This document shows positions 19,191 to 59,400 of a stretch of 64,000 bases of DNA, piece by piece. A model generated the notes under the pieces. It saw only the letters and a list, made by a program, of their open reading frames with translations. It was not told the origin of the DNA and did no database searches. Source of the stretch: Klebsiella phage vB_KM5a1-KLB31; the sequence record PP582757.1. One strand, written 5' to 3'. The translations under genes and the position numbers were made by a program. Numbering within the stretch: the stretch's first letter is position 1; each line of letters opens with the position of its first letter.

Positions 19191-20171
19191 TTATTTCAGA
19201 AGAGTTACTTCAGCAATCTCTTCCCAACCATTTGCATCGGTAGCGACGAAGTCAGCCAGGTAAAGCGCTGTACGTAAGGAAACGTTACGGAGTTTAGTAA
19301 CATTAGCCTTCATCCAGTTGAGTGCCATGGACGTCTGAGCGTCGCTTAAACCACGTTTCTGCATCATGTTGGTGTTCAAGATTACATCTTCAACGCGAAT
19401 CATGATTTCTTCGTTTGAGTGAACACCCAGGTCCAGATAAACTGAACGTGATACAAGAGCATGAAGGTGTGGAGCAAGTTTAGAACCACGTTCTAATTCT
19501 TTATCGATATCAACGTTAGTGATGAAAACGATAGTACCTTCAAACTCGAATTCTTTATCGATGTTTTTGTCATCGAGGTAAGAAGAAGCAGTGCTCCAGC
19601 AAACTTTACGAGTTTCGCCTGTATCGAGTGCTGCTTTCAGGAGGTTAAGCATATCCATATCAGAGAATACGTCAACATCATCAATAAGCAGAACGCTGTT
19701 TGCATCACGGTTGTTCCAAAGCTGCTCATAAAGACCGATACCTGAGATTTTACCGTTGATGCTTTTATAAACGATTTCACCATATTCATGAGAAGTTTTC
19801 AGGGCTTTATCCAAGCTGTAAGTTTTACCAATACCTGCGGCACCAGAGATGATTAAAGAACGGATGTTGCCAGAGATAATACCTTTGGTCATCATGTTCA
19901 TAACTGTGAAGCGTTTGTTGATACGCTGTTTCATTTCTTCGACTGACTCAACTGTAGCCAGTAGAGAAACCTCCATACCTTCCATTTCGATATCAGATTT
20001 GAACACCCATACACCACGTTCTTTGCCATCAACTTGGATGAACACTTTACCATCACCAAGGTGTGCTTCATGAGCAGGAACAACATCTGGGAACCAAGTC
20101 TTGGTTGCAACGAATTTACCAGAGATGTCGTTACCGCGGAAAGTACCTTTGTTGATTTGAACGTTGAACAT
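19191..20171 (-). CDS. AAA+ ATPase with DnaA/DnaC/IstB-like Walker B and a novel ~100 aa N-terminal domain
   Basis: Walker A ISGAAGIGKTY; Walker B SVLLIDDVDVF, which is the hhhhDDhD form typical of the DnaA/DnaC/IstB clade; a helical C-terminal domain. Confidence 0.6.
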   Translation of the reverse strand: MFNVQINKGTFRGNDISGKFVATKTWFPDVVPAHEAHLGDGKVFIQVDGKERGVWVFKSDIEMEGMEVSLLATVESVEEMKQRINKRFTVMNMMTKGIISGNIRSLIISGAAGIGKTYSLDKALKTSHEYGEIVYKSINGKISGIGLYEQLWNNRDANSVLLIDDVDVFSDMDMLNLLKAALDTGETRKVCWSTASSYLDDKNIDKEFEFEGTIVFITNVDIDKELERGSKLAPHLHALVSRSVYLDLGVHSNEEIMIRVEDVILNTNMMQKRGLSDAQTSMALNWMKANVTKLRNVSLRTALYLADFVATDANGWEEIAEVTLLK

Positions 20172-20751: not shown

Positions 20752-20759
20752 TATAAATA
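20752..20759 (+). promoter_or_regulatory. T4-type late promoter TATAAATA
   Basis: An exact TATAAATA octamer lies 26 nt upstream of the AAGGAG RBS and ATG of the collagen-like gene. Confidence 0.7.
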
Positions 20760-20784
20760 ATTTAGGCCTAAATAAGGAGATTTT

Positions 20785-21558
20785 ATGTTAATTGCTGCAG
20801 ACTCTATAGAAAGCCTGAACACTAAGATTCAAGAGAAGATAGCTGATGGGATGTATTTGTTTGGAGCACCAACTATTCTACCATCTACACAGTTTGATTC
20901 TGATAGATATTTTCAGTTGATGTCTGACACAAGAGATACTGTACCAGGCCCGCCAGGTGCTAAAGGGGATAAAGGAGATACTGGAGCCGATTCTACTGTT
21001 CCGGGTCCTCCAGGTGCAAAAGGAGATACAGGCGCTGCAGGACTTTCTGCTTATCAAACATGGCTTAATCTCGGGCATACTGGTACTGAACAAGATTTCT
21101 TAAATTCCATAGCAGGAACAAGACAAAAATCTGAAGCGTTTTGGACCGGGTTGTCTATAGCATTGACTGCAGGAACTACTTACAATCTGATAAACATTTT
21201 GAAAGGAACACCTACTACTGCAGGTCAATTAGCTCCATTCTTTAGAATTGCTGATAATAAATTATGGCCATTCAACTCTGACACCACAATGACATTTAAG
21301 CTTAACGTAACAGGTGTTTTTACCGGTGTGAGTCAAGCCCGTAGTCTGACAATTAACTTTGTTGGGACCAACGGTAACACTTTAGTTCAAAACCGTCCTG
21401 AAAATGCTATAGACACTATGTCATTTGCCACATTCTTTAGTGTAGACAAGAATGGACAAATGGCAACTAATGGTTCTGTTATCGATATAATCGCCAATGG
21501 AGGTGTGTTCACCATTAACAGTGTTCTTTTAGTAGCAGAACAAGTAGTGAAGTCTTAA
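20785..21558 (+). CDS. Collagen-like repeat protein (late-expressed, probably virion-associated)
   Basis: VPGPPGAKGDKGDTGADSTVPGPPGAKGDTGAAGLSAYQTW contains two runs of G-X-Y triplets. The C-terminal region is Thr/Asn/Gly-rich and beta-type. This is the only plus-strand gene within ~50 kb of minus-strand genes, and it is flanked by a late promoter and a terminator hairpin. Confidence 0.75.
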   Translation: MLIAADSIESLNTKIQEKIADGMYLFGAPTILPSTQFDSDRYFQLMSDTRDTVPGPPGAKGDKGDTGADSTVPGPPGAKGDTGAAGLSAYQTWLNLGHTGTEQDFLNSIAGTRQKSEAFWTGLSIALTAGTTYNLINILKGTPTTAGQLAPFFRIADNKLWPFNSDTTMTFKLNVTGVFTGVSQARSLTINFVGTNGNTLVQNRPENAIDTMSFATFFSVDKNGQMATNGSVIDIIANGGVFTINSVLLVAEQVVKS

Positions 21559-21564
21559 TGCCCA

Positions 21565-21586
21565 AAAGGGACCGTAAGGTCCCTTT
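21565..21586. terminator. Bidirectional hairpin (GGGACC-GUAA-GGUCCC on the plus RNA)
   Basis: AAAGGGACCGTAAGGTCCCTTT is a perfect inverted repeat followed by a T-run. Confidence 0.65.
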
Positions 21587-21587
21587 A

Positions 21588-21836
21588 TTATTTGTTAATC
21601 TGATTTTCGGCGATACGTGCCGGGAACTGAGCAACCCACTTCAGCAAAGACCATAATCCACCAATAATGAACAGTGGGAGCCATAAGATAAAGTAGAACC
21701 AGTAATCAGAAACAGATTCGATAGTATTGTTCTTGATGAATGCTTTGCACACCAAGAATCCGAGTGCAAAATAAACCAACCCAATAAAGATAGGCATAAT
21801 CCACCATAGTTGTGCTAATAGTAAAGTCATAATCAC
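21588..21836 (-). CDS. Small multi-pass membrane protein (last gene of the nucleotidyltransferase cassette)
   Basis: 82 aa with two or three hydrophobic helices (LLLAQLWWIMPIFIGLVYFALGFLV ... FYFILWLPLFIIGGLWSLL). Confidence 0.5.
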   Translation of the reverse strand: MIMTLLLAQLWWIMPIFIGLVYFALGFLVCKAFIKNNTIESVSDYWFYFILWLPLFIIGGLWSLLKWVAQFPARIAENQINK

Positions 21837-22843
21837 CTGTAATAAGAGTTATGGTTCGCCAAATAAACCTCTTCGAGGAACTTGTTCCAGAAGCTCATAT
21901 CAACTTCTTTACGCATACCATTCTTTTCTGCATTCACAGCCAACAGTTCTACTATATCAACTGTATCTTCCAGCAATTCTTGAACTTCTTTGAATGGAAG
22001 AGCACCAGACTTAATCAGTCGCACCATTCCGGCTTCACGCAGTGGGAATACCAAGTCGCCAGTAGAATAGATTTCTTTCAGCTGAATACCTGCACGATAA
22101 GCATGACTCAGAGCTTTCCAATCCACACCTTCATTAGCTTCTGCCTTACGAGCACGTTCACCATATTCGGCTTCAAGCTTAGTCAAACTGTATTTAATTT
22201 CAGCAATAGTGATTGTGTCCTGGAATTTACGACCCAATACATTATAGAAATGTTGAACACCCATTTTGGAATCAACATCGTCTTTCCAGAATAAGAATTC
22301 ACTTGTCGGTAAAAGATGAGCAATTTCACCCAGCTTCCAACGTTGGTTGTGGGCCTTATCTTTAGGACGATCTTCATATTTCCATTCAGGATATTCGTTC
22401 AGAATATTGAGAATGATTTTCAGGTCTGCCAGACGTGAACCTTTGACACCATATTTCGCAGCCTGTTTACGGACATAACCCAGATAAGATTTCATGTCAG
22501 TAGTATAGAAGCGTTCACGGTTATCTTGGATGAATTTCCATACATCAGCCAGGTCGGATTTAACAACCAGTTCGGCTGGGGTGTGAATCATATCAAGAGC
22601 AACAGTTTCTCCTGACTGAGCAAGCTCTAACCAATACTTCAGAGAATAAAGCTCATGGTCGACATCATCATGGCCATTCTTAGAAGCAGTATTGTTGGTG
22701 TTCATGTTGGTATGGTTCATTGCACGACCCATGAGAATATCTTTTGGGTGTGGAACGAAGATTTCTTTGAAATCTGTGTCACTTTCAGGTGTTGACGTAC
22801 CATATAAATGGCTTCCGAAGAAGCCTTTCATAACTGTTTTCAT
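21833..22843 (-). CDS. Pol-beta-superfamily nucleotidyltransferase with a large helical C-terminal domain
   Basis: The N-terminus GFFGSHLYGTSTPESDTDF fits the G-S-x(9-13)-D-x-D minimal-NTase signature; a candidate third acidic residue is VALDMIH. The product is 336 aa. Confidence 0.6.
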   Translation of the reverse strand: MKTVMKGFFGSHLYGTSTPESDTDFKEIFVPHPKDILMGRAMNHTNMNTNNTASKNGHDDVDHELYSLKYWLELAQSGETVALDMIHTPAELVVKSDLADVWKFIQDNRERFYTTDMKSYLGYVRKQAAKYGVKGSRLADLKIILNILNEYPEWKYEDRPKDKAHNQRWKLGEIAHLLPTSEFLFWKDDVDSKMGVQHFYNVLGRKFQDTITIAEIKYSLTKLEAEYGERARKAEANEGVDWKALSHAYRAGIQLKEIYSTGDLVFPLREAGMVRLIKSGALPFKEVQELLEDTVDIVELLAVNAEKNGMRKEVDMSFWNKFLEEVYLANHNSYYR

Positions 22844-23379
22844 CGTGTAGGATTACCCCATTCAAAACCACGGAATGTGCGAATCAGAACATCATCGTTC
22901 AGGTTAACTACAAGACCCGCGCCAGATACGGTATCTTCCATGAACATTGTACCACCATTACCGGCAATAGCAAGTACTTTAAATTCACGGTCGTGTTTAC
23001 CGAAGATATCACCAACTTCGACCGGAACTTTCTTAATAGTCTTTTCGTCGGTCCAGTAATTCAGCTCATCGGCCTGAGAAGTATGAAGCTTTTCTTGTTT
23101 GCCTTGAGACATCACAGTGGCTTCTTTTACTTTATAGACACCAACTTGGTCTTCAGAATACACAACCAGTTCAATCAGAGTACGATTAGAATAAATTTTC
23201 AGTTGAGTACGGTTTTTATTATTACCATCAATAAAGATGTTATGAGCACCATGAGCCAGAGAAATGAAGTCTACAATACCGTCAATACGACGACCATTCT
23301 CGAGATGAATTTCTAAAGAACGGCCCACTTCTAGGGCCTTTTTATTACGATCTTCGACTTTAGTTTGTTTAATGAACAT
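22840..23379 (-). CDS. Hypothetical protein, translationally coupled to the nucleotidyltransferase
   Basis: 179 aa; its stop overlaps the NTase start. Confidence 0.5.
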   Translation of the reverse strand: MFIKQTKVEDRNKKALEVGRSLEIHLENGRRIDGIVDFISLAHGAHNIFIDGNNKNRTQLKIYSNRTLIELVVYSEDQVGVYKVKEATVMSQGKQEKLHTSQADELNYWTDEKTIKKVPVEVGDIFGKHDREFKVLAIAGNGGTMFMEDTVSGAGLVVNLNDDVLIRTFRGFEWGNPTR

Positions 23380-23382
23380 GGC

Positions 23383-23871
23383 TTATTCCTTTTCTTCTGT
23401 TTTTGTGAAATTCAGAGTAGGACAGAATTTATCGTGCTTAGCTTTAACAAAGGCCCATACAATATTAGGCTGTTTCGGTTCGATACCATTTGCACGATCA
23501 ATTTCAGCCTGTCGTTCACGTTCTACTGCTTTATCATACTTGCGATCAGACCACCATTCAGAAATACGCTGCCATACCCATACACCGCCAAACACCACAG
23601 CACATGCACCAGCCAGAATTACAGCCAGGAACAGAATAGAACCAAAGAAGCTTGCTACATAAGCCCAAACACCTGTTGCACCCCAGGCAATCATTGGAGC
23701 AAGCATCATATTAGACAGCATAATAGTCAAACCAGTACCTACAGCGCTCAAGAATAGAACACGATAAATTACGGCACGTACATAAGGACAAAGTGAACGT
23801 GGAACACCTTTAGAAGAGGTGAAAGTGTTTTTAACGAGTTTGTAGTGCCAAGAATTTACATTGATATTCAT
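23383..23871 (-). CDS. Multi-pass membrane protein
   Basis: 162 aa with at least 3 TM segments (VIYRVLFLSAVGTGLTIMLSNMMLAPMIAWGATGVWAYVASFFGSILFLAVILAGACAVVFGGVWV). Confidence 0.5.
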   Translation of the reverse strand: MNINVNSWHYKLVKNTFTSSKGVPRSLCPYVRAVIYRVLFLSAVGTGLTIMLSNMMLAPMIAWGATGVWAYVASFFGSILFLAVILAGACAVVFGGVWVWQRISEWWSDRKYDKAVERERQAEIDRANGIEPKQPNIVWAFVKAKHDKFCPTLNFTKTEEKE

Positions 23872-23892: not shown

Positions 23893-24108
23893 TTAAAGAG
23901 TAGAAGTTACTTGAACCAGATAATCACGCAGAGCCATAATATCACGCTTATCTAAAGCAATAATATCGGTGCCCTGTTTAATAGTCATAATAGCATTACG
24001 AGATGTATCATAAGTCTTTTTGATATTCAGACGGATATCATCGTCGCCGTCATCATTATGGATTGTTGCGCCATAGCCATAACCTTCATAGTTCAGACCA
24101 ACTTTCAT
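23893..24108 (-). CDS. Hypothetical protein
   Basis: 71 aa. Confidence 0.4.
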   Translation of the reverse strand: MKVGLNYEGYGYGATIHNDDGDDDIRLNIKKTYDTSRNAIMTIKQGTDIIALDKRDIMALRDYLVQVTSTL

Positions 24109-24383
24109 TTTAACTCACCTTTAGCCTTTGCTTCGTGGATTGCAGCCAGAACACTTGCATAGTTCTCCGGGTCGCTTTTACGTACGATAGACACGCTATA
24201 AGGCATACTATCATGGTCTTTGATGAAACGTTCTAACTGACATGTCAGAAGAACTTCAGGGTGAAATAGAGTGTACATCAGGTTGCCTGTTGCGGCCCTG
24301 TATTGACAAATCTCTACGGATTGTTTACCTTCCCACTGACGTGTCAGGACTAAATCGCCTACTTCAAGTTTTGGAAAACCCAT
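24105..24383 (-). CDS. Hypothetical protein
   Basis: 92 aa. Confidence 0.4.
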   Translation of the reverse strand: MGFPKLEVGDLVLTRQWEGKQSVEICQYRAATGNLMYTLFHPEVLLTCQLERFIKDHDSMPYSVSIVRKSDPENYASVLAAIHEAKAKGELK

Positions 24384-24445
24384 TTCAATTTCCTCTCGTT
24401 TGTCTGTAGGAGTATAATAACACGTCCTACAGACGTTGTAAACAC

Positions 24446-24661
24446 TTAGCGATTGTGCTTAAGGATTGAATACAACTGTTCAAGTTGATTCCAATCTAGT
24501 ACGATGCAACTATCACCTTGAGTGAAGATGACCCCATTTTTAACGCTCTCACATTCACACAGCTTAAAATTAAAATTAGAATCAGGTTCTAAAGCAATCG
24601 CGCCGTTTTTAGAACTACCATATGGATCGTATAACATTATCTCATGCTCCTGTGCCAGCAA
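24446..24661 (-). CDS. Hypothetical protein
   Basis: 71 aa. Confidence 0.4.
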   Translation of the reverse strand: MLAQEHEIMLYDPYGSSKNGAIALEPDSNFNFKLCECESVKNGVIFTQGDSCIVLDWNQLEQLYSILKHNR

Positions 24662-30107: not shown

Positions 30108-30362
30108 CTATGGATAGAACGGGGTTAAAGACCAAGATTCTTTAGAAACTTTGTCGGCGAAAGCCATCATTTCTTCGATTTGACGCAGACGTTGGTCCGC
30201 ATAATCTTCTTCACCTTCTTCCTTACATGCTTCAAGGTCTTCTTCGAGATATTTCAAGTACTCGTTACAAATCTTGTTGACCTTTTCTTGAAAGTCCATC
30301 AGACCCGCTACAGTGCTCATCAGTATTTCTCTTCTGGCTGGAAAACTGCACGGCATGCCCAC
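30108..30362 (-). CDS. Hypothetical acidic protein (vs.x)
   Basis: 84 aa. Confidence 0.4.
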   Translation of the reverse strand: MGMPCSFPARREILMSTVAGLMDFQEKVNKICNEYLKYLEEDLEACKEEGEEDYADQRLRQIEEMMAFADKVSKESWSLTPFYP

Positions 30363-30649
30363 ATAGAGGCTTCTTTCAGTTTCTCTTTAGCGATACGCAT
30401 AGCATCACAGGCAGACAGAGCTTGGTCTAGTTCATTCTCGGACAAGCCTTCGCTGTTGACATAGACTTCAGTGAGCTCTTCGTCTAGGGTTTTAAAAATT
30501 AGACCAAGACGTTCTTCAGCATCTTTGATGGCATTTACTTTACCGATTTTATCTTCGGTATGCGGACGATAACCCTTAATATCTTCAATCGACATAAGGC
30601 ACCTCTTCATCGGTTTCTTTATCATATTCGACCAAGCGAATAGGTTCAT
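30320..30649 (-). CDS. Hypothetical protein (vs.x)
   Basis: 109 aa. Confidence 0.4.
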   Translation of the reverse strand: MNLFAWSNMIKKPMKRCLMSIEDIKGYRPHTEDKIGKVNAIKDAEERLGLIFKTLDEELTEVYVNSEGLSENELDQALSACDAMRIAKEKLKEASMWACRAVFQPEEKY

Positions 30650-44101: not shown

Positions 44102-44177
44102 TGGCAGGCGCTTGAGGAATCGAACCCCAGACCAATGGATTTGGAATCCACCGCTCTACCAACTGAGCTAAGCACCT
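44102..44177 (-). tRNA. tRNA-Trp (anticodon CCA)
   Basis: Minus-strand AGGTGCT-TA-GCTC-AGTTGGTA-GAGC-G-GTGGA-TTCCAAA-TCCAT-TGGTC-TGGGG-TTCGATT-CCTCA-AGCGCCT-G-CCA gives a full cloverleaf, with the CCA encoded. Confidence 0.85.
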
Positions 44178-44180
44178 AAT

Positions 44181-44256
44181 TGGGGTGACCTATGGGACTT
44201 GAACCCATGACTACAAGAATCACAATCTTAAATTCTACCAACTGAATTAAGGCCAC
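44181..44256 (-). tRNA. tRNA-His (anticodon GUG)
   Basis: GTGGCCT-TA-ATTC-AGTTGGTA-GAAT-T-TAAGA-TTGTGAT-TCTTG-TAGTC-ATGGG-TTCAAGT-CCCAT-AGGTCAC-C-CCA. The discriminator C73 is typical of His. Only 3 nt separate it from tRNA-Trp. Confidence 0.85.
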
Positions 44257-44289
44257 AGCAATGTTCACTCAAATGAACGAACATTAATC

Positions 44290-44365
44290 TGGCGGATGTG
44301 CACGGATTCGAACCGCGGACCAATCACTTAACGGGCGACCGCTCTACCAACTGAGCTACACATCC
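44290..44365 (-). tRNA. tRNA-Asn (anticodon GUU)
   Basis: GGATGTG-TA-GCTC-AGTTGGTA-GAGC-G-GTCGC-CCGTTAA-GTGAT-TGGTC-CGCGG-TTCGAAT-CCGTG-CACATCC-G-CCA. The anticodon stem has two G-U pairs and position 33 is C. Confidence 0.8.
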
Positions 44366-44366
44366 T

Positions 44367-44894
44367 TTATCTTGCAGATTTTATTTTGTTTTCTTTAAAT
44401 AGGTCGATAATAGAGTTAACATCGCCTTTAATCCACTCACCATCAGCATTTAAAGCTTTATGGAAAGAAAACTCTTCTTCAAAACGTTTATCACTGAAAT
44501 AGTAACATTCTAATTTATAATCACGTAAAGGGCAGTAGGATTGATAAGTGTTCAACCTATCATAAACATCCACTGTAGAACCTATTTTATACCATCCTTC
44601 AAAAGCAGGATTAGTTACGCAATAAATGAAACCTTCTTTAATACCTTTAGAAGAATTACCATTTCTGAAATACTTTACACGCAACAATGATAACTTGGTG
44701 AAGTTCACTTGTCGTGAAATCAATTTATCAGACTTTCGTGAAGCAGTGTCTGTATACTGGAGCTTAAAATTAGGATGAATATATTTGAAATAAATGTATT
44801 TAGCGAACTCAGTATTTATATCAAAATCAATCCCACTAATACCTTCTTCATTAAGATAAGCACTATATTGATTAATTATTTTGGCCTTATCCAT
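44367..44894 (-). CDS. GIY-YIG / T5orf172-type nuclease-domain protein inserted in the tRNA cluster (Seg-like, putative mobile)
   Basis: The C-terminal block GFIYCVTNPAFEGWYKIGSTVDVYDRLNTYQ has the G-h-I-Y...N...YKIG-T...R spacing of GIY-YIG/T5orf172 domains. The ORF is markedly AT-rich relative to its surroundings, and its position is analogous to T4 segB. Confidence 0.55.
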   Translation of the reverse strand: MDKAKIINQYSAYLNEEGISGIDFDINTEFAKYIYFKYIHPNFKLQYTDTASRKSDKLISRQVNFTKLSLLRVKYFRNGNSSKGIKEGFIYCVTNPAFEGWYKIGSTVDVYDRLNTYQSYCPLRDYKLECYYFSDKRFEEEFSFHKALNADGEWIKGDVNSIIDLFKENKIKSAR

Positions 44895-44910
44895 ATTCTT
44901 CTCATAAATT

Positions 44911-44988
44911 TGGTAGGACGTGAGGGATTTGAACCCATCGACATCTCGATTAAAAGTCGAGTGCTCTAACCAGCTGAGCTAACGTCCT
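44911..44988 (-). tRNA. tRNA-Lys (anticodon UUU), with an imperfect T-stem
   Basis: AGGACGT-TA-GCTC-AGCTGGTTA-GAGC-A-CTCGA-CTTTTAA-TCGAG-ATGTCG-ATGGG-TTCAAAT-CCCTC-ACGTCCT-A-CCA. The acceptor, D and anticodon arms are perfect, but the T-stem has 3 G-C pairs plus T/T and A/C mismatches. Confidence 0.65.
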
Positions 44989-45000
44989 TCTTAATTCTAT

Positions 45001-45237
45001 TTATTCAGTATATCTCTTAAACTGTAAAGCAAAATCTTCATCAACTTTAGTTAAGAAGTGTCCTGCCTTAAATCGTTTAGAGCTACCTTCGACTTCTACA
45101 CCATATCCGTTCTTACCAAGGACTCGACCAACTCGCATTTCGCCAGGGTCACCCATTGAATTACAACGAACACCGTACAGAACAAAATCATTTTCGAATA
45201 CCGGAGCATTTTTCCGGTCAGTAATTAATTCTATCAT
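45001..45237 (-). CDS. Hypothetical protein
   Basis: 78 aa. Confidence 0.4.
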   Translation of the reverse strand: MIELITDRKNAPVFENDFVLYGVRCNSMGDPGEMRVGRVLGKNGYGVEVEGSSKRFKAGHFLTKVDEDFALQFKRYTE

Positions 45238-45244
45238 ATTAACC

Positions 45245-45700
45245 TTAAAGCATATTACGTTTTAAGTTTTCACGAACTCGATAAAGGTTTGAACAGAATT
45301 CCTGTTCAGTCAAAACAGTTTCGTTCTTTTTCGACTTACCCATCGAGTGAGTTAATGTAGCGTTCTGCGTAGCCAGGAGCGCTCTCTGGAACCCTTCATT
45401 CAAGGCTAATTGATTATATGCTCGTTCGATAAGAAGACTGTAGGCGTCACTCTGGCGTTGCATAGGCACACCTTTCCAGTATAATGTCTGGAGTCGCCAC
45501 CAATTCTTTTTCTTACCTTTGAACTTAGCTTTCTTACCAACTAGAGTACAAACATGTTCCTGCATTTCTACTGAAGAAAATTTCAGTGATTGCAAAAAGC
45601 CTTCCATCGAAGCACATTGTACACCATCAATTTCAAAAGCATGAGGTGCAAAGTTACTTAGTGAAGAAGCAGGATATCCTGCGCCTGAACCGATATCCAT
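45245..45700 (-). CDS. Hypothetical protein (N-terminal D-I-G-S-G-A-G motif)
   Basis: 151 aa; MDIGSGAGYPASSL resembles a SAM-binding glycine loop, but the protein is too short for a full methyltransferase. Confidence 0.45.
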   Translation of the reverse strand: MDIGSGAGYPASSLSNFAPHAFEIDGVQCASMEGFLQSLKFSSVEMQEHVCTLVGKKAKFKGKKKNWWRLQTLYWKGVPMQRQSDAYSLLIERAYNQLALNEGFQRALLATQNATLTHSMGKSKKNETVLTEQEFCSNLYRVRENLKRNML

Positions 45701-45924
45701 TAATCACCCCATTGCATAATCATTGCGATATCATCAATATCTGTCACGATGTTTTCAATTTCATTGATAAAATTAGACAGATATGGAACCACATTAGGAG
45801 TATAAAGCCAATTGGCACATTGAATGCATTGATTGCCTACTTTATCCTGAAATATTACAGCTTCGGAATGGCTTCCACCTTTCCATCGTATTAAAGCAAA
45901 CCCTAATGGATATTTCTGACGCAT
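45700..45924 (-). CDS. Hypothetical protein
   Basis: 74 aa. Confidence 0.35.
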   Translation of the reverse strand: MRQKYPLGFALIRWKGGSHSEAVIFQDKVGNQCIQCANWLYTPNVVPYLSNFINEIENIVTDIDDIAMIMQWGD

Positions 45925-45944
45925 TATATTTTCCTCAGTTGTTT

Positions 45945-46100
45945 GTTCACAGCGGGGTGGATTCGAACCACCAATATTAAGTCACTCATGCTCCAAGCAT
46001 GCTAGGGCACTTACCCCGGACGGAATCGAACCGCATCTACAATACCTATCGCCATGTCTGGTGGCCCTTCTGGGAGTCTAACCCAGCTTACACCGATTAT
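45945..46100 (-). ncRNA. Two tRNA-like elements with canonical T-arms (GGTGG-TTCGAAT-CCACC; GCGG-TTCGATT-CCGT) but non-canonical remainder
   Basis: The T-loop and T-stem consensus is perfect, but I could not form 7-bp acceptor stems. They may be degenerate tRNAs or small stable RNAs. Confidence 0.3.
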
Positions 46101-46145
46101 GAGTCGGGTACTTTCACACGAAAGTATAAAGGGCCTGAATAAACT

Positions 46146-46234
46146 TGGTACGGGTGACGAGATTCGAACTCGTAAGAGCTTAAGCCCTATGGCATTTTAA
46201 GTGCCATGCGTACTGCCAATACCGCCACACCCGC
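46146..46234 (-). tRNA. tRNA-Leu (anticodon UAA), class II with a long variable arm
   Basis: GCGGGTG-TG-GCG-GTATTGGCAGTA-CGC-A-TGGCA-CTTAAAA-TGCCA-TAGGGCTTAAGCTCTT-ACGAG-TTCGAAT-CTCGT-CACCCGT-A-CCA; 89 nt. Confidence 0.8.
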
Positions 46235-47603: not shown

Positions 47604-48617
<1,014 letters not shown>

Positions 48618-54473: not shown

Positions 54474-56426
54474 ATGGCAGACCAACCTACTAATTTTCAG
54501 TTGACCAGGACGGTTAACGCAATCCCACAGGTATTCGTGGGAGCAACATTTGATGAAATTAAAAAGAACATTATCGATTGGCTGACTAGTCAAAAAGAAT
54601 TCCAGGATTATGACTTTACTGGCTCTCGTATGAACGTTCTCATCGATATGTTGGCATACAACACCCTGTATATCCAGCAATTCGCGAACACTGCGGTATA
54701 TGAATCATTTATCGGTACTGCGAACAGACGTTCTAGCGTCGTCCAGGCTGCACAGGATAAAGGGTATCTTCCTTCATCTATGTCTGCGGCTAAAACCAGT
54801 ATTTTACTGACATGTTCTTCTGCTAATCCAGACCCGAGTATCAAGATTCCTCGTGGAACCAAATTCTTGGCTTACGCACGTGATTCTTCTGTTGACCCAT
54901 TTGCATTCGTTACTACAGAAGATGTAATCGCAATTCGTGATAAAAATGGTAAATATCTTCCTATTGTCAATATGGCCCAAGGACGTATTATCCGTACTGA
55001 ATTGCTTTATGACCCAGACCAGCCTATTTTGATTCGCGACCCTAACATCGACCGTAAAGAAGTCCGCTTATTTGTCAACGGCGCTCGTTGGGAAGATTGG
55101 ACTAATAAATCAATGGTCCATGCTGGTTCGACTTCAACTATTTTCTATATGCGCGAAACCGTAGATGGAAATACCGAATTCTTCTTCGGCGAAGGTGAAC
55201 AGTCTCCCTCTGTCGCTGGCGGTGTATTAGAAGCCAACTATATTGGTGGTCTGAAACCTGTTAAAGAATCTACTATCGTTATCGAATATCTTCGTACAGA
55301 TGGTGAGAAAGCTAATGGCGCAGTCGATTTTAGCTATGCAGATACATTAACGAATATCACAATCGATAGTATCACTGAGAACCCAACCGATAGTCCTGAT
55401 TATGTTGGCGCAGATGGTGGTGGTGACCCTGAAGATATTGAACGTATTCGTGAACTGGCCGTAGTTAAACGTGAAGCACAAATGCGTTGTGTGACTGGTA
55501 CAGACTATGATACATTCGTTTCCGAACGATTTGGTTCTATTGTCCAGGCTGTCCAGACATTTACCGATGTTCAAAAACCAGGCTATGCATTCATTGCTAT
55601 AAAGCCTAAGTCTGGTTTATATCTCACGGCTGTTCAACGTGAAGATGTCCAAAACTATCTGAATGGCTTTAACGTTTCGACAATTACGCCAAGTGTAATC
55701 AGTCCTAACTACATGTTCTTGAAACACGATATTAAAGTGACTTATTCGCTTAATAAACTCCAAGAATCTGAACAGTGGCTCCGTGCTCAAGTAATTGACC
55801 AAATGGACCGCTATTACATTGATGAAGTTGAAATCTTTAACGCAGGTTTTGCTAAGTCTAAAATGTTGACTTATATTGATAATAGTGACCACTCGGTACT
55901 TGGTTCTTCAGCGTCTATTACTATGGTTCGCGAAATTCTGAACTTTATGAAAACACCTGAAGCAGGCATTAAATACTATAATCAATATACTAACCGTTCA
56001 GTGGAATCTAGTGTCTTTGAGTTTACGCCTACAACCGGTACTAACTACAACGTTCGTATTGTAGCAACTGACCGAGATTCAAAAGGCGATGGTAAAATGG
56101 TTATAGGTCCTTTCCGTAATGGCGATGTCGTAGAAAATGCGAATGTTAAACCTTATACTGGAACAGACTTCAATAAAATGCCTGGTGCTCCAGCCAATCA
56201 AACCAAGTATTATGTTATTGGTGAGATTGATTATTGGTCAGATTACATTTATTGGGACATAAGCAAACTCGGATTAACATCAGCCCAGTTTGAAGTCCAG
56301 AGCATTGAGCTTTATGCAGGCCCTACACAAGATAACATTTTTACCAAAGACGGTTCACTGATTGTATTTGAGAACGATCTTCGTCCTCAATACACTACCA
56401 TTACTATGGAGCCTATTACTCAATGA
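54474..56426 (+). CDS. 6: Baseplate wedge protein gp6
   Basis: MADQPTNFQLTRTVNAIPQVFVGATFDEIKKNIIDWL...; 650 aa; collinear with T4 gp6. Confidence 0.95.
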   Translation: MADQPTNFQLTRTVNAIPQVFVGATFDEIKKNIIDWLTSQKEFQDYDFTGSRMNVLIDMLAYNTLYIQQFANTAVYESFIGTANRRSSVVQAAQDKGYLPSSMSAAKTSILLTCSSANPDPSIKIPRGTKFLAYARDSSVDPFAFVTTEDVIAIRDKNGKYLPIVNMAQGRIIRTELLYDPDQPILIRDPNIDRKEVRLFVNGARWEDWTNKSMVHAGSTSTIFYMRETVDGNTEFFFGEGEQSPSVAGGVLEANYIGGLKPVKESTIVIEYLRTDGEKANGAVDFSYADTLTNITIDSITENPTDSPDYVGADGGGDPEDIERIRELAVVKREAQMRCVTGTDYDTFVSERFGSIVQAVQTFTDVQKPGYAFIAIKPKSGLYLTAVQREDVQNYLNGFNVSTITPSVISPNYMFLKHDIKVTYSLNKLQESEQWLRAQVIDQMDRYYIDEVEIFNAGFAKSKMLTYIDNSDHSVLGSSASITMVREILNFMKTPEAGIKYYNQYTNRSVESSVFEFTPTTGTNYNVRIVATDRDSKGDGKMVIGPFRNGDVVENANVKPYTGTDFNKMPGAPANQTKYYVIGEIDYWSDYIYWDISKLGLTSAQFEVQSIELYAGPTQDNIFTKDGSLIVFENDLRPQYTTITMEPITQ

Positions 56427-59400
56427 CTGTAAAAGCACCTTCCGTTACCAGTTTACGTATCGATAAACTGTCTGCTAACCAGGTACACATTCGTTGGGAT
56501 AACGTGGGTGCAAACTTCTACTATTTTGTAGAAATCGCTACAACTCGTACTGATGGGGTCGCCTTAGACCCCTCAAAATACATTTGGCGTGCACTTGGTT
56601 ATACCCCAGACAATGACTGGTTTGAAGATGACGCAATCCGTCCTCTAAATTATTACAAAATGCGGGTATCCGTAGCCGCCAAAGGGTTTGAACAGTCTGA
56701 TTGGGAAACCACTGAAGAATTCCAATCATTTGCAACTAACGCATACACATTTACTCATATGCGCGAGTTCAACCTTGTCACTAAATTTATCCAAGAGAAG
56801 TTCGTTCTTAATAATGGATATATCGATTTCAACAAAGACCAGATTATTGCATCTTTGATGTCTGAAGATTTCCAATTCAGCCCTTCTTATGTCGATATCA
56901 GTTCAATTAAAAACTTTGTTCTGCAAGAAGATGAATTCCATGAGATTCAAGGGCCTATCCAAAAAGTTTGTTCTGATGATTTAGAACGTATTATGCTGGC
57001 CGAGCTCGGTGGCGTTCTTTATGAATTCGAACGTTTCCAACCTATGGTTAAAGTGTCTAATGACAAAGGCCAGAACTGGAAATATGTTAAACTTTTGACC
57101 GACCGTGCTGGGAACCCTGTTTCTAAGGTCCCTTATTACCAGACAACCACAACTACTTATTTGCTCGGTTATGACCGTGTATTTTATGGCCGTAAATCAA
57201 ACGACGTTCGTTGGTCGTCTGATACGGTTAAAATGTCTTCACAAGACGTAACGTTTGCTAAAATTGGTGACCAACTTAAATTAGGTTTTGACGTTGAGAT
57301 ATTCGGTACTTATGCTCGTCTTCCATTAGCAGTATCGACTATTGCCGAAGCAATGACCGTAAGTGATGACTTCATTTATGTTGCTGGTCGTGGTAAAGTC
57401 TATAAAGCTAAAGTAACCAATGCTCCTATCGATTTAGACCCAGGTTCTCCTAGTTTTGGTGAGAAGTTATTTGAAACCGGCTTCAGTACAATTGTCGACA
57501 ATACAAAAGCTGTTTGCTTTAAAATGGATTCAGTCCAGGGCAATACTTATGCTTTGATTACCGGTGAAGTTAAAGAAGAAGGACAAGACCCGACTATTCC
57601 TGATAATGTTATTAGTTCAGAATCTAAAGGCGTTTATCTTTTAGACCCGGAAACAGATGTATGGACTCGTGTATTTGGTAACACTGAAGAAGAACGTCGT
57701 CGAATTGAACATGGTTGGACCTCAATGGGTGCCAATGGTGATGAAGTTTATTTCAGTAGCAGCAACTTTGCATACCAAGTAGAAAATGACCCAGAAGTAG
57801 TTCAGGAATACCCTGACCAGGTCAATGAAGGTGTTAAATTCGTTTACGAACCTCAGTATATTCATGATAAACATTATCTGATGATGAGCTTCAGAACTAG
57901 CGCCGAAAATGGTTGGACCAAATTTAAACCAGGTCGAATGGATTATTATGCAGAGCCGTTTTTTGCTTGGTCACGTCGTGATAAGACTCGTTGTTGGATT
58001 ACTAATTCGCGTCGTTGCATGGTAGTCTATGAAGACATGCTTTATCAGAAAGTTGTTGATGAATTTGGTTCTGGTTCTCCGGACCGTATTATTCATGAGA
58101 CTTGGGACAAAGGCCATGTAACTGTTACCTGTCCTAATATAGAGTTCCAAGGATTTAAACGTTATGCTTCTGGTATTATGCTTCATAAAAATACTGGTGA
58201 GCTCATCGGTTATTTCGAGTTCGATTATCGTGTTCGTGATGAAGTCCGTTTAATCTGGAAACCAAAAGAAATCATGTTCACTGCAGACCTTCAAGGTCAG
58301 GAACGTGAAATTCCTTGGACGCCAGAAGTTACTAATAAAGAACGTGACCCAGACCTTCGTCCTTTACTGAACAAGATGATGCCAGACAGTTATTTGCTCC
58401 AAGACACCAACTTTGAGAAGTTCTGCGAGTATTATCTGCAATTCTTAAGTGATGGTTCCGGAACATATTATAATAACCTTCTGAATCTGATTCGAGACCA
58501 ATATCCTCGTGAAGAAGATGCATGGAACTATTTGTGGTCTGAGATTTACAAACGTAATATCTATTTGAGCAAAGACAAACGTGATGAAGTGGTTCGTTTC
58601 TTTGAAGCCCGTCAATCTGATTTCTGGATGACTAAAGGCACTGAAGCAAGCTATAAATTCTTGTTTAAATTGCTTTATAACGAAGATGTTGAAATCGACA
58701 TCGAATCTAAGAACACAACTGAATATGATATTCTTGTTGAATCTGACAATATTAACGAAGACATCGTAGGTCAAACAATATACACCAAAACCGGTCGTAG
58801 TAATGTGACTTATCTTGAACGTTATTACAATGAAGGTAAACTTCAGTGGCGTGTCACGATTCATAACCTTTTAGGTAATTTTAATGCTGGTCAGGAAATT
58901 CTTTCTGAACGTACCGCATTTAAAGGAATGATTATTCGAGGCGTACGTGGTAAAGAGCTGTTAAGTAATACGATTGAGTACATCAACCGTAACCGTTCTT
59001 ATTATGTGATGACAATTAAATCTAATCTGCCAACCTCTCGTTATCGTGGCGACGTATTACGTTTTGTTCACCCGGTTGGTTTTGGATTCATAGGTATCAC
59101 ACTTTTGACTATGTTCATTAATGCCGGCTTAACATTAAAACATGTTGAGACGATTTTGAATATATACAAAAACTATCGTTGGGACGCAGGACTTCCTTCA
59201 GTTTATCCAGATCGAGTTGCAGTAATGGATTCGAATGGCGATGTTGAAAGAGACCCTGTAACAGGTGAAGTTCGTTATGATACACCTCCTAATGCAGGAC
59301 TTCCGTTCCCTATTCGTCCTGATTATATAGATGAGAACAATAACAGTATGTGGCATGGATTAAATCCTGACGAACGTAGACGTCCTATGTCGCCATTATT

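Follow-up and report, generated by a model that had tools for sequence, protein, structure and literature searches.

Gene organization of the locus

The window analysed here is a stretch of 64,000 nt of the genome of Klebsiella phage vB_KM5a1-KLB31 (PP582757.1), and the region in focus lies on its minus strand at positions 21588-23871, where four tightly packed open reading frames (ORFs) include one for a nucleotidyltransferase (NTase). In the direction of transcription they encode a membrane protein of 162 amino acids (aa; 23383-23871), a protein of 179 aa (22840-23379), the NTase of 336 aa (21833-22843), which sequence and position identify as the ortholog of T4 NrdC.11, and a second membrane protein of 82 aa, read from a GTG start (21588-21836). 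The ORF list reproduces exactly the coordinates and lengths given in an earlier note on this DNA, made from the letters alone. Of the junctions described there, the overlaps at 22843/22840 and 21836/21833 stand, the first being an ATGA shared by the 179-aa and NTase genes and the second, if GTG 21836 is the start, a GTGA shared by the NTase and 82-aa genes; the supposed 4-nt gap at 23383/23379 is in fact a gap of 3 nt (TAA-gcc-ATG). An alternative start of the 82-aa gene, ATG at 21830 preceded by AGG-N5, would give a protein of 80 aa and a gap of 2 nt, and more likely represents the true start than the GTG.

Gene order in the window follows that of the gene 43 - nrdC - tk - vs - e - tRNA - baseplate region of Edwardsiella phage PEi20, and the locus shares 96% nucleotide identity with PEi20 and PEi26 (Kanagawavirus, Tevenvirinae). 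Judged by their sequences, all four ORFs are real genes under purifying selection; they are conserved in related phages, with ratios of nonsynonymous to synonymous substitution rates (dN/dS) below 1 in the comparison with Enterobacter phage CIP9, namely 0.22 for the 162-aa gene, 0.45 for the 179-aa gene, 0.066 for the NTase and 0.034 for the 82-aa gene.

The nucleotidyltransferase as T4 NrdC.11

The earlier note had stated that T4 lacks such a gene at this position, which is false. In the T4 genome (NC_000866) nrdC.11 encodes a protein of 336 aa at 55435-56445, between nrdC.10 and mobD, and the KLB31 enzyme is 64% identical to it over 336/336 aa. Length, catalytic and C-terminal motifs, strand and place upstream of nrdC.10 in the nrdC-tk early region are all the same, and nrdC.10, rI.-1 and tk flank the enzyme gene as they do in T4. 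The records of PEi20 and PEi26 annotate the 336-aa gene as nrdC.11, and that of PEi20 also names the counterpart of the gene at 19191-20171 as nrdC.10. The immediate surroundings differ: in T4 the homing endonuclease gene mobD and mobD.1 lie upstream and nrdC.10 follows nrdC.11 directly, whereas in KLB31 the 162-aa and 179-aa genes lie upstream, and the 82-aa gene, a late gene on the plus strand and a 140-aa gene intervene before nrdC.10.

The enzyme is widespread. A tblastn search found relatives in 1,516 phage records, and in 1,439 of these the match spans 80% or more of the query; T2, RB32 and T4-like phages of Klebsiella, Acinetobacter, Aeromonas and Vibrio are among them. A large protein database holds 2,360 relatives, and the RlaP domain (PF10127) is present in 120/120 of the relatives listed. 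The enzyme is therefore already known, as a T4-like gene whose RlaP family has been assigned in the literature and which is annotated in its nearest relatives. The T4 protein is entered (NP_049709) as an [quoted passage not shown]. It had been considered that the cassette might turn out to be a conserved core block of T4-like phages with a known role; this holds for the enzyme, a conserved T4-like gene with an assigned family, and fails for the four-gene block, which is not universal.

Many GenBank and UniRef entries name nrdC.11 orthologs "thioredoxin", and one reads "HNH homing endonuclease"; these labels are evidently an annotation error spread from the names of the neighbouring nrdC and mobD. 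The nrdC.10 ortholog (19191-20171, minus strand, 326 aa; dN/dS 0.052 against CIP9), a conserved protein of T4-like phages, gave matches below threshold only, to NTPase families of the AAA/STAND type and to the HTH_37 domain.

Family, active site and fold

In Pfam the enzyme matches RlaP with 52.2 bits against a cut-off of 23 (E 8.8e-14), the sole match to the NTase clan at E<=0.1, and in PHROGs it matches phrog_388, "nucleotidyltransferase" (2e-118); a full-length bacterial relative (locus L114) also matches PF10127 (4e-15). On these profiles the enzyme is assigned to the RlaP family of Pol-beta nucleotidyltransferases. The N-terminal signature reported previously, GS-x10-D-T-D-F, is confirmed as G10-S11-x10-D22-T-D24-F, with G10, S11, D22 and D24 invariant across the family members compared, and the downstream acidic residue, which had been feared missing, is there: D84 does not vary among 25 close sequences, and 8 divergent ones have D or E at this position, with E in Vibrio phage VH7D. 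Two further motifs, KQAxKYGxKG and DWKAxxHAxR, are likewise conserved in the family.

An AlphaFold2 model of the enzyme (mean predicted local distance difference test, pLDDT, 78) consists of an NTase core and a helical bundle. Together with the RlaP match, it supports the earlier description of a Pol-beta NTase in which the catalytic core comes first and a helical domain forms the C-terminus. At 336 aa the phage enzyme exceeds the 249-position Pfam model of RlaP and has an alpha/beta segment in its middle, at roughly residues 140-210. In a Foldseek comparison of the model with the PDB nothing was found at E<=1e-3. The best of the non-significant matches is HalB of the Hailong system (9dbh), followed by the NTase-like protein 3c18 and then by aminoglycoside and lincosamide NTases, while the C-terminal part is matched by bundles of the HEPN type; the top 60 contain no cGAS, CD-NTase or OAS entry. 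Sequence and profile searches of the PDB with the NTase and with the 162-aa, 82-aa and 179-aa proteins returned nothing usable.

The kinship with CD-NTases, OAS-like enzymes and MNT toxins proposed at first has found no matching profile or fold in Pfam, NCBIfam, PADLOC or the fold searches. Membership of the CD-NTases and of the cyclic-oligonucleotide-based antiphage signalling system (CBASS) was rejected since there is no SMODS or CD-NTase Pfam match at E<=0.1 and PADLOC yields only a noise-level match to Csa3. OAS membership was rejected as well, there being no OAS match in Pfam at the same threshold, OAS1_C included, and none in the top 60 of the fold search. So was a type VII toxin-antitoxin pair of MNT (MntA) and HEPN, the NCBIfam MntA model scoring 14.5 bits against a cut-off of 60 and no separate HEPN gene being present.

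A probable role in RNA 3'-end repair

Two RlaPs of Pseudomonas have been characterized: they add one or two nucleoside monophosphates (NMPs) to the 3'-OH of RNA, with a preference for Mn2+, and do not act on DNA or protein (PMC12776372). In a nicked-tRNA mimic the Pseudomonas enzymes prefer the 5' tRNA half, at its 3' end, and they partly restore the aminoacylation of a tRNA lacking one nucleotide of the anticodon loop (PMC12776372). The same study puts T4 NrdC.11 explicitly in PF10127, in cluster 5 of a sequence similarity network. In jumbo phages the distribution of RlaP mirrors that of RNA ligases, and the protein is predicted to restore nucleotides removed by RloC-type nucleases (PMC7824862).

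The neighbourhoods of cellular relatives point in the same direction. One genome per prokaryotic species was scanned, giving 80 bacterial and archaeal loci with full-length relatives at 28-49% identity, and neighbour clustering together with Pfam placed RNA-repair genes within 5 kb in 15 of the 80 (Pnkp in 6, Hen1 in 7, RtcB in 7 and Ro60/TROVE in 4). Nearly all of these genes lie on the same strand as the NTase, one RtcB being opposite, and several times the NTase begins where the Pnkp gene ends. As separate observations on the same set, in many loci (L106, L116, L123, L127, L163, L171 and others) the NTase is followed directly by a second, shorter ORF of about 270 aa from the same cluster, forming an apparent tandem pair, and in 6 loci a gene with an HD_4 domain adjoins the NTase.

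Family biochemistry and gene neighbourhoods taken together, we consider it rather probable that the enzyme is a phage RNA 3'-end repair NTase acting in counter-defence and encoded in a variable early/middle operon. A two-metal site formed by D22, D24 and D84 would catalyse the untemplated extension of broken RNA, by one or two NMPs, from its 3'-OH. Its substrates would probably be tRNA halves left by host anticodon nucleases of the RloC type, which cut the tRNA and then remove one nucleotide; the phage Pnkp (pseT) and RNA ligase (rnlA), whose genes lie elsewhere, would complete the repair by healing and sealing the tRNA. By extending trimmed tRNA halves for sealing by these two proteins the enzyme would be part of counter-defence. 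PEi20 encodes both pseT and rnlA, about 85-90 kb from nrdC.11. The fallback offered in the earlier note, a phage counter-defence or nucleotide-modifying enzyme, was right in direction.

The window also contains five tRNA genes, at 44102-46234 on the minus strand, for Trp(CCA), His(GTG), Asn(GTT), Lys(TTT) and Leu(TAA), a set that differs from the syntenic cluster of PEi20, annotated as Asp, His, Asn, Lys, Met and Leu. The tRNAs for His, Asn and Lys are classic targets of anticodon nucleases, and the presence of their genes fits the theme of RNA repair.

Several points weigh against a repair role. The structural model is only moderately confident, and its best PDB match, HalB, makes DNA and does not extend RNA. 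The bacterial RlaPs of P. fluorescens and P. aeruginosa, found in rtcB-rlaP-rtcA operons (PMC12776372), resemble the phage enzyme in Pfam family, in three conserved acidic residues and, as far as its model shows, in the arrangement of an N-terminal NTase and a C-terminal helical domain, but the characterized proteins belong to sequence cluster 1a and T4 NrdC.11 to cluster 5, and the adjacency to a ligase is not found in the phage, where the enzyme gene lies beside neither pseT nor rnlA. Even for the bacterial RlaPs the role in RNA repair is termed "potential" (PMC12776372). T4 mutants lacking nrdC.11-mobD.3 are viable in the laboratory (PMC9825161), and therefore any role must be conditional, which fits a conditional function in counter-defence. 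Finally, the start codon of the NTase is very often overlapped by the 162-aa gene or, where there is one, by the 179-aa gene, and a functional link is possible.

Some of the same evidence could also be read as that of a true RlaP-type enzyme with another substrate, engaged in repair of the 3'-CCA of tRNA, in tagging or stabilizing the 3' ends of phage or host mRNA, or in the modification of RNA fragments left by the phage's own RegB or by host RNases, rather than in repair of the anticodon loop. The labelling of RNA by RlaPs in vitro extends to rRNA, full-length tRNA and tRNA fragments and shows little specificity for the nucleoside triphosphate, and the authors themselves acknowledge unresolved problems with the repair model (PMC12776372); moreover, in T4-like phages nrdC.11 is unlinked to pseT and rnlA. 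However, the genes that recur beside RlaP in bacteria and in jumbo phages are ligase, Pnkp, Hen1, RtcB and Ro60 specifically, and the preference for the 3' end of the 5' tRNA half noted above speaks for nicked tRNA, so that we regard a different substrate as unlikely.

The three small neighbours

The 162-aa protein belongs to the family phrog_944, carries the conserved motifs SWH and SLCxYFW at the N-terminus and KxCPxIxF at the C-terminus, and is found in 997 phage records; at 50% clustering the family, a stand-alone single-domain one, has 352 representatives and no Pfam domain. The 82-aa protein (phrog_6166) occurs in 259 phage records. Both membrane proteins are multi-pass, as previously described, the counts being somewhat lower: a Kyte-Doolittle scan gives two to three transmembrane segments for the 162-aa protein, for which at least three had been claimed, and two for the 82-aa protein. 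The 179-aa protein (phrog_10164) is soluble, all-beta and confidently folded into two small beta-barrel domains, which weakly resemble RNA-binding small barrels. None of the three proteins has a meaningful match in Pfam, NCBIfam, PADLOC or the PDB. Among the genes of T4, MobD.1 was tried as the counterpart of the 179-aa protein and NrdC.7 as that of the 162-aa protein, and neither shows similarity.

The 179-aa gene evolves fast, and its dN/dS against CIP9, the highest of the four, indicates relaxed or diversifying selection. In the comparison with PEi20 the same gene is the most diverged of the four, at 94%, while its neighbours reach 99%.

Some distant relatives of the 162-aa protein have no RlaP in their neighbourhood, and another does adjoin RlaP in a contig resembling an Acinetobacter phage. 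One of those without RlaP lies beside a Band_7 gene: at locus L176, a JGI metagenome contig of 92.9 kb, a distant relative of 220 aa starts at the stop codon of a Band_7/SPFH gene and RlaP is absent within 4 kb, which may hint at a membrane-scaffold-related function of the 162-aa family apart from the NTase.

Is the enzyme coupled to its neighbours?

Twelve genus-level phage representatives were compared, the search for neighbours in T4 covering the 16-kb nrdD-tk region. Upstream of the NTase, the 162-aa family is found in 8 of the 12 (PEi20, CIP9, Merlin, STP4-a, JD18, VR7, T2 and AM101) and the 179-aa family in 5, with a partial relative in KP15; downstream, the 82-aa family is found in 5. 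T4, KP15, Aeh1 and VH7D have the NTase without either membrane protein, the upstream slot in T4 being held by mobD, so the notion that the enzyme requires the membrane proteins is unsupported.

A wider comparison used profile searches over 80 viral loci from IMG/VR, binned by identity of the NTase, with nrdC.10 and rI.-1 as markers of synteny. Among the 39 loci at 60% identity or more, the 162-aa family was present in 38, the 179-aa family in 23, the 82-aa family in 22, nrdC.10 in 32 and rI.-1 in 33; at 45-59% (24 loci) the respective counts fall to 5, 12, 0, 4 and 3, and below 45% (17 loci) only the 162-aa family is still seen, in 2, with none of the other four. Taking all loci below 60% together, the 162-aa protein lies upstream in 7/41 and the 82-aa protein downstream in 0/41. 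The association of the neighbours with the enzyme is about what background synteny in this phage group predicts, because among the closest loci the 38/39 of the 162-aa family stand beside 32/39 and 33/39 for the two markers; part of the loss in distant phages may be due to the fast divergence of small membrane proteins. The three neighbours are thus most probably lineage-variable, independent accessory or host-takeover genes, carried on the same transcript and dispensable to the enzyme.

The opposite reading takes the four proteins as one physical or functional module in which the neighbours might, for example, bring the RNA-end-modifying enzyme to the membrane or control its activity. In its favour, each stop codon overlaps the next start or all but touches it; the gene order 162 aa - 179 aa - NTase - 82 aa is shared by Kanagawavirus, Moonvirus, Gelderlandvirus and Jiaodavirus, with two additional genes interposed in the last; the 179-aa family is still upstream of the NTase in half of the loci (12/24) at 45-59% identity; and the barrels of the 179-aa protein have the weak likeness to RNA-binding domains mentioned above. 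Against this, co-occurrence is no better than that of the unrelated markers, four representatives have no such membrane partners, distant relatives of the 162-aa protein exist without RlaP, and no small membrane-protein family is found among the clustered neighbours of the 80 bacterial loci, where the 162-aa and 82-aa profiles were not run. On balance we consider such a module improbable. Smaller still is the chance that the recurrent arrangement 162-aa-(179-aa)-NrdC.11-(82-aa), whose stop and start codons overlap in several genera of Tevenvirinae, is a true module in which an RlaP-type NTase cooperates with small membrane proteins or is under their control, for instance in membrane-tethered RNA-end repair or tagging, or as an oligonucleotide-channel pair, Hailong-like or anti-Hailong, in a lytic phage.

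Signalling systems as alternatives

The Hailong variant can be considered in its own right, since HalB is the best fold match. Under this reading an oligonucleotide such as oligo-dA would gate a channel formed by the 162-aa or 82-aa protein or, in an anti-Hailong decoy, would replenish the inhibitory ligand of host HalA. HalB, the partner of the HalA channel, is described as making tyrosine-primed oligo-dA in a bacterial defence system. Here, however, the fold match is not significant, the profile of the enzyme family does not retrieve HalB from the PDB sequences even at E<=10, and the KLB31 membrane proteins are tiny and match no PDB chain, HalA included. The setting is a lytic phage and the family is RlaP, whose bacterial members lie in RNA-repair operons and whose studied proteins are inactive on DNA (PMC12776372). 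The reading is very improbable.

Least probable of all, and hardly credible to us, is abortive infection by CBASS-like signalling, in which a second messenger made by the NTase would activate the 82-aa or 162-aa protein and permeabilize the membrane: an NTase with an intact catalytic triad does share an operon with two small multi-pass membrane proteins, but the likeness to type I CBASS is limited to the generic GS/DxD/D core of Pol-beta enzymes and to this adjacency, RlaP is the only family of the clan matched, PADLOC gives only noise at E<=0.1, no cGAS-like fold is found, the membrane proteins have no recognizable nucleotide-sensing domain by Pfam or PDB match, and the enzyme is kept in more than 1,400 lytic T4-like phages, some without both membrane proteins, its partners varying with lineage in what is a phage genome. 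The logic of an NTase plus a transmembrane effector, on which the earlier note had built its comparison with type I CBASS, accordingly has no profile, PADLOC, fold or sensing-domain match behind it.

The same window carries homologs of two further genes that bear on this point, vs.4 (30323-30595, minus strand, 99% identity) and 57B (47924-48376, minus strand, 100% identity), as compared with the PEi20/T4 genes. We take T4 vs.4 to be Acb2 (acb2) and 57B to be Acb1 (acb1), both of which counter CBASS; on that identification the phage would be armed against cyclic-nucleotide signalling instead of encoding a CBASS-like system itself.

Transcription of the locus

A G+C-rich hairpin (21565-21586) lies directly 3' of the stop codon of the 82-aa gene and before the late gene on the plus strand. 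The terminator scan flagged it on the plus strand; read on the minus strand, it has a stem GGGACC/GGTCCC followed by TTTT and then by GGG, and it is probably a bidirectional terminator, weaker on the minus strand, that marks the 3' end of the operon. The sequence scan found no terminator between the four genes, and with the hairpin behind the last of them their co-transcription on a single transcript is plausible.

Upstream, two genes on the minus strand abut the four ORFs at 23893-24383, one of 92 aa (Phage_tudor, PF24144) and one of 71 aa (T4_y05I_C, PF24448), and are probably on the same transcript. A candidate early promoter of the sigma-70 type (TTTACA-17-TATTAT with TG; 24414-24442, minus strand) lies upstream of this pair, and therefore the transcript may start upstream of the four genes. 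A candidate middle promoter of the MotA type (ATTGCTTTA-N11-TATTAT; 23936-23961, minus strand) lies within the 3' end of that 71-aa gene, about 65 nt before the ATG of the 162-aa gene, and PEi20 carries motA and asiA. The motif is kept in 2 of 45 loci (PEi20 and CIP9), against a background of 0.03 per kb, and a conserved MotA-type promoter bounding exactly the four genes was rejected on this count, the site being a candidate only. Farther upstream there are a strong terminator on the minus strand after rI.-1 (25667-25644) and another sigma-70-like promoter candidate (25628-25600, minus strand). The operon proposed earlier thus stands as a tightly packed, co-oriented run and not as a discrete four-gene unit: the four genes form the 3'-terminal part of a longer co-directional early/middle run in the hyperplastic nrdC-tk region, ending at the hairpin.

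Other genes of the region

Beyond the upstream pair, a separate ORF of 71 aa (24446-24661, minus strand) shares only about 51% identity with its counterpart in PEi20, against 97-100% for the genes on either side, and this pattern marks it as a local mosaic replacement inside a near-identical region.

On the plus strand, antisense within the early nrdC region and between nrdC.10 and nrdC.11, lies a gene of 257 aa (within 20752-21558, a span that takes in its promoter box) whose product combines collagen-like G-x-y repeats with a tail-needle-knob domain of the Sf6 type (PF16532, 3.7e-29). A T4 late-promoter box, TATAAATA at 20752, is placed 33 nt upstream of it. The gene is present in PEi20 and PEi26 and absent from CIP9, where nrdC.10 directly follows the 82-aa gene. 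A knob domain of the podovirus type is unusual in a T4-like myovirus.

Concluding remarks

The occurrence of bacterial relatives in loci with Pnkp, Hen1, RtcB and Ro60 supports NrdC.11 as a candidate for the "nucleotide-restoring" step of T4-type tRNA repair, directed against anticodon nucleases that excise the wobble nucleotide.

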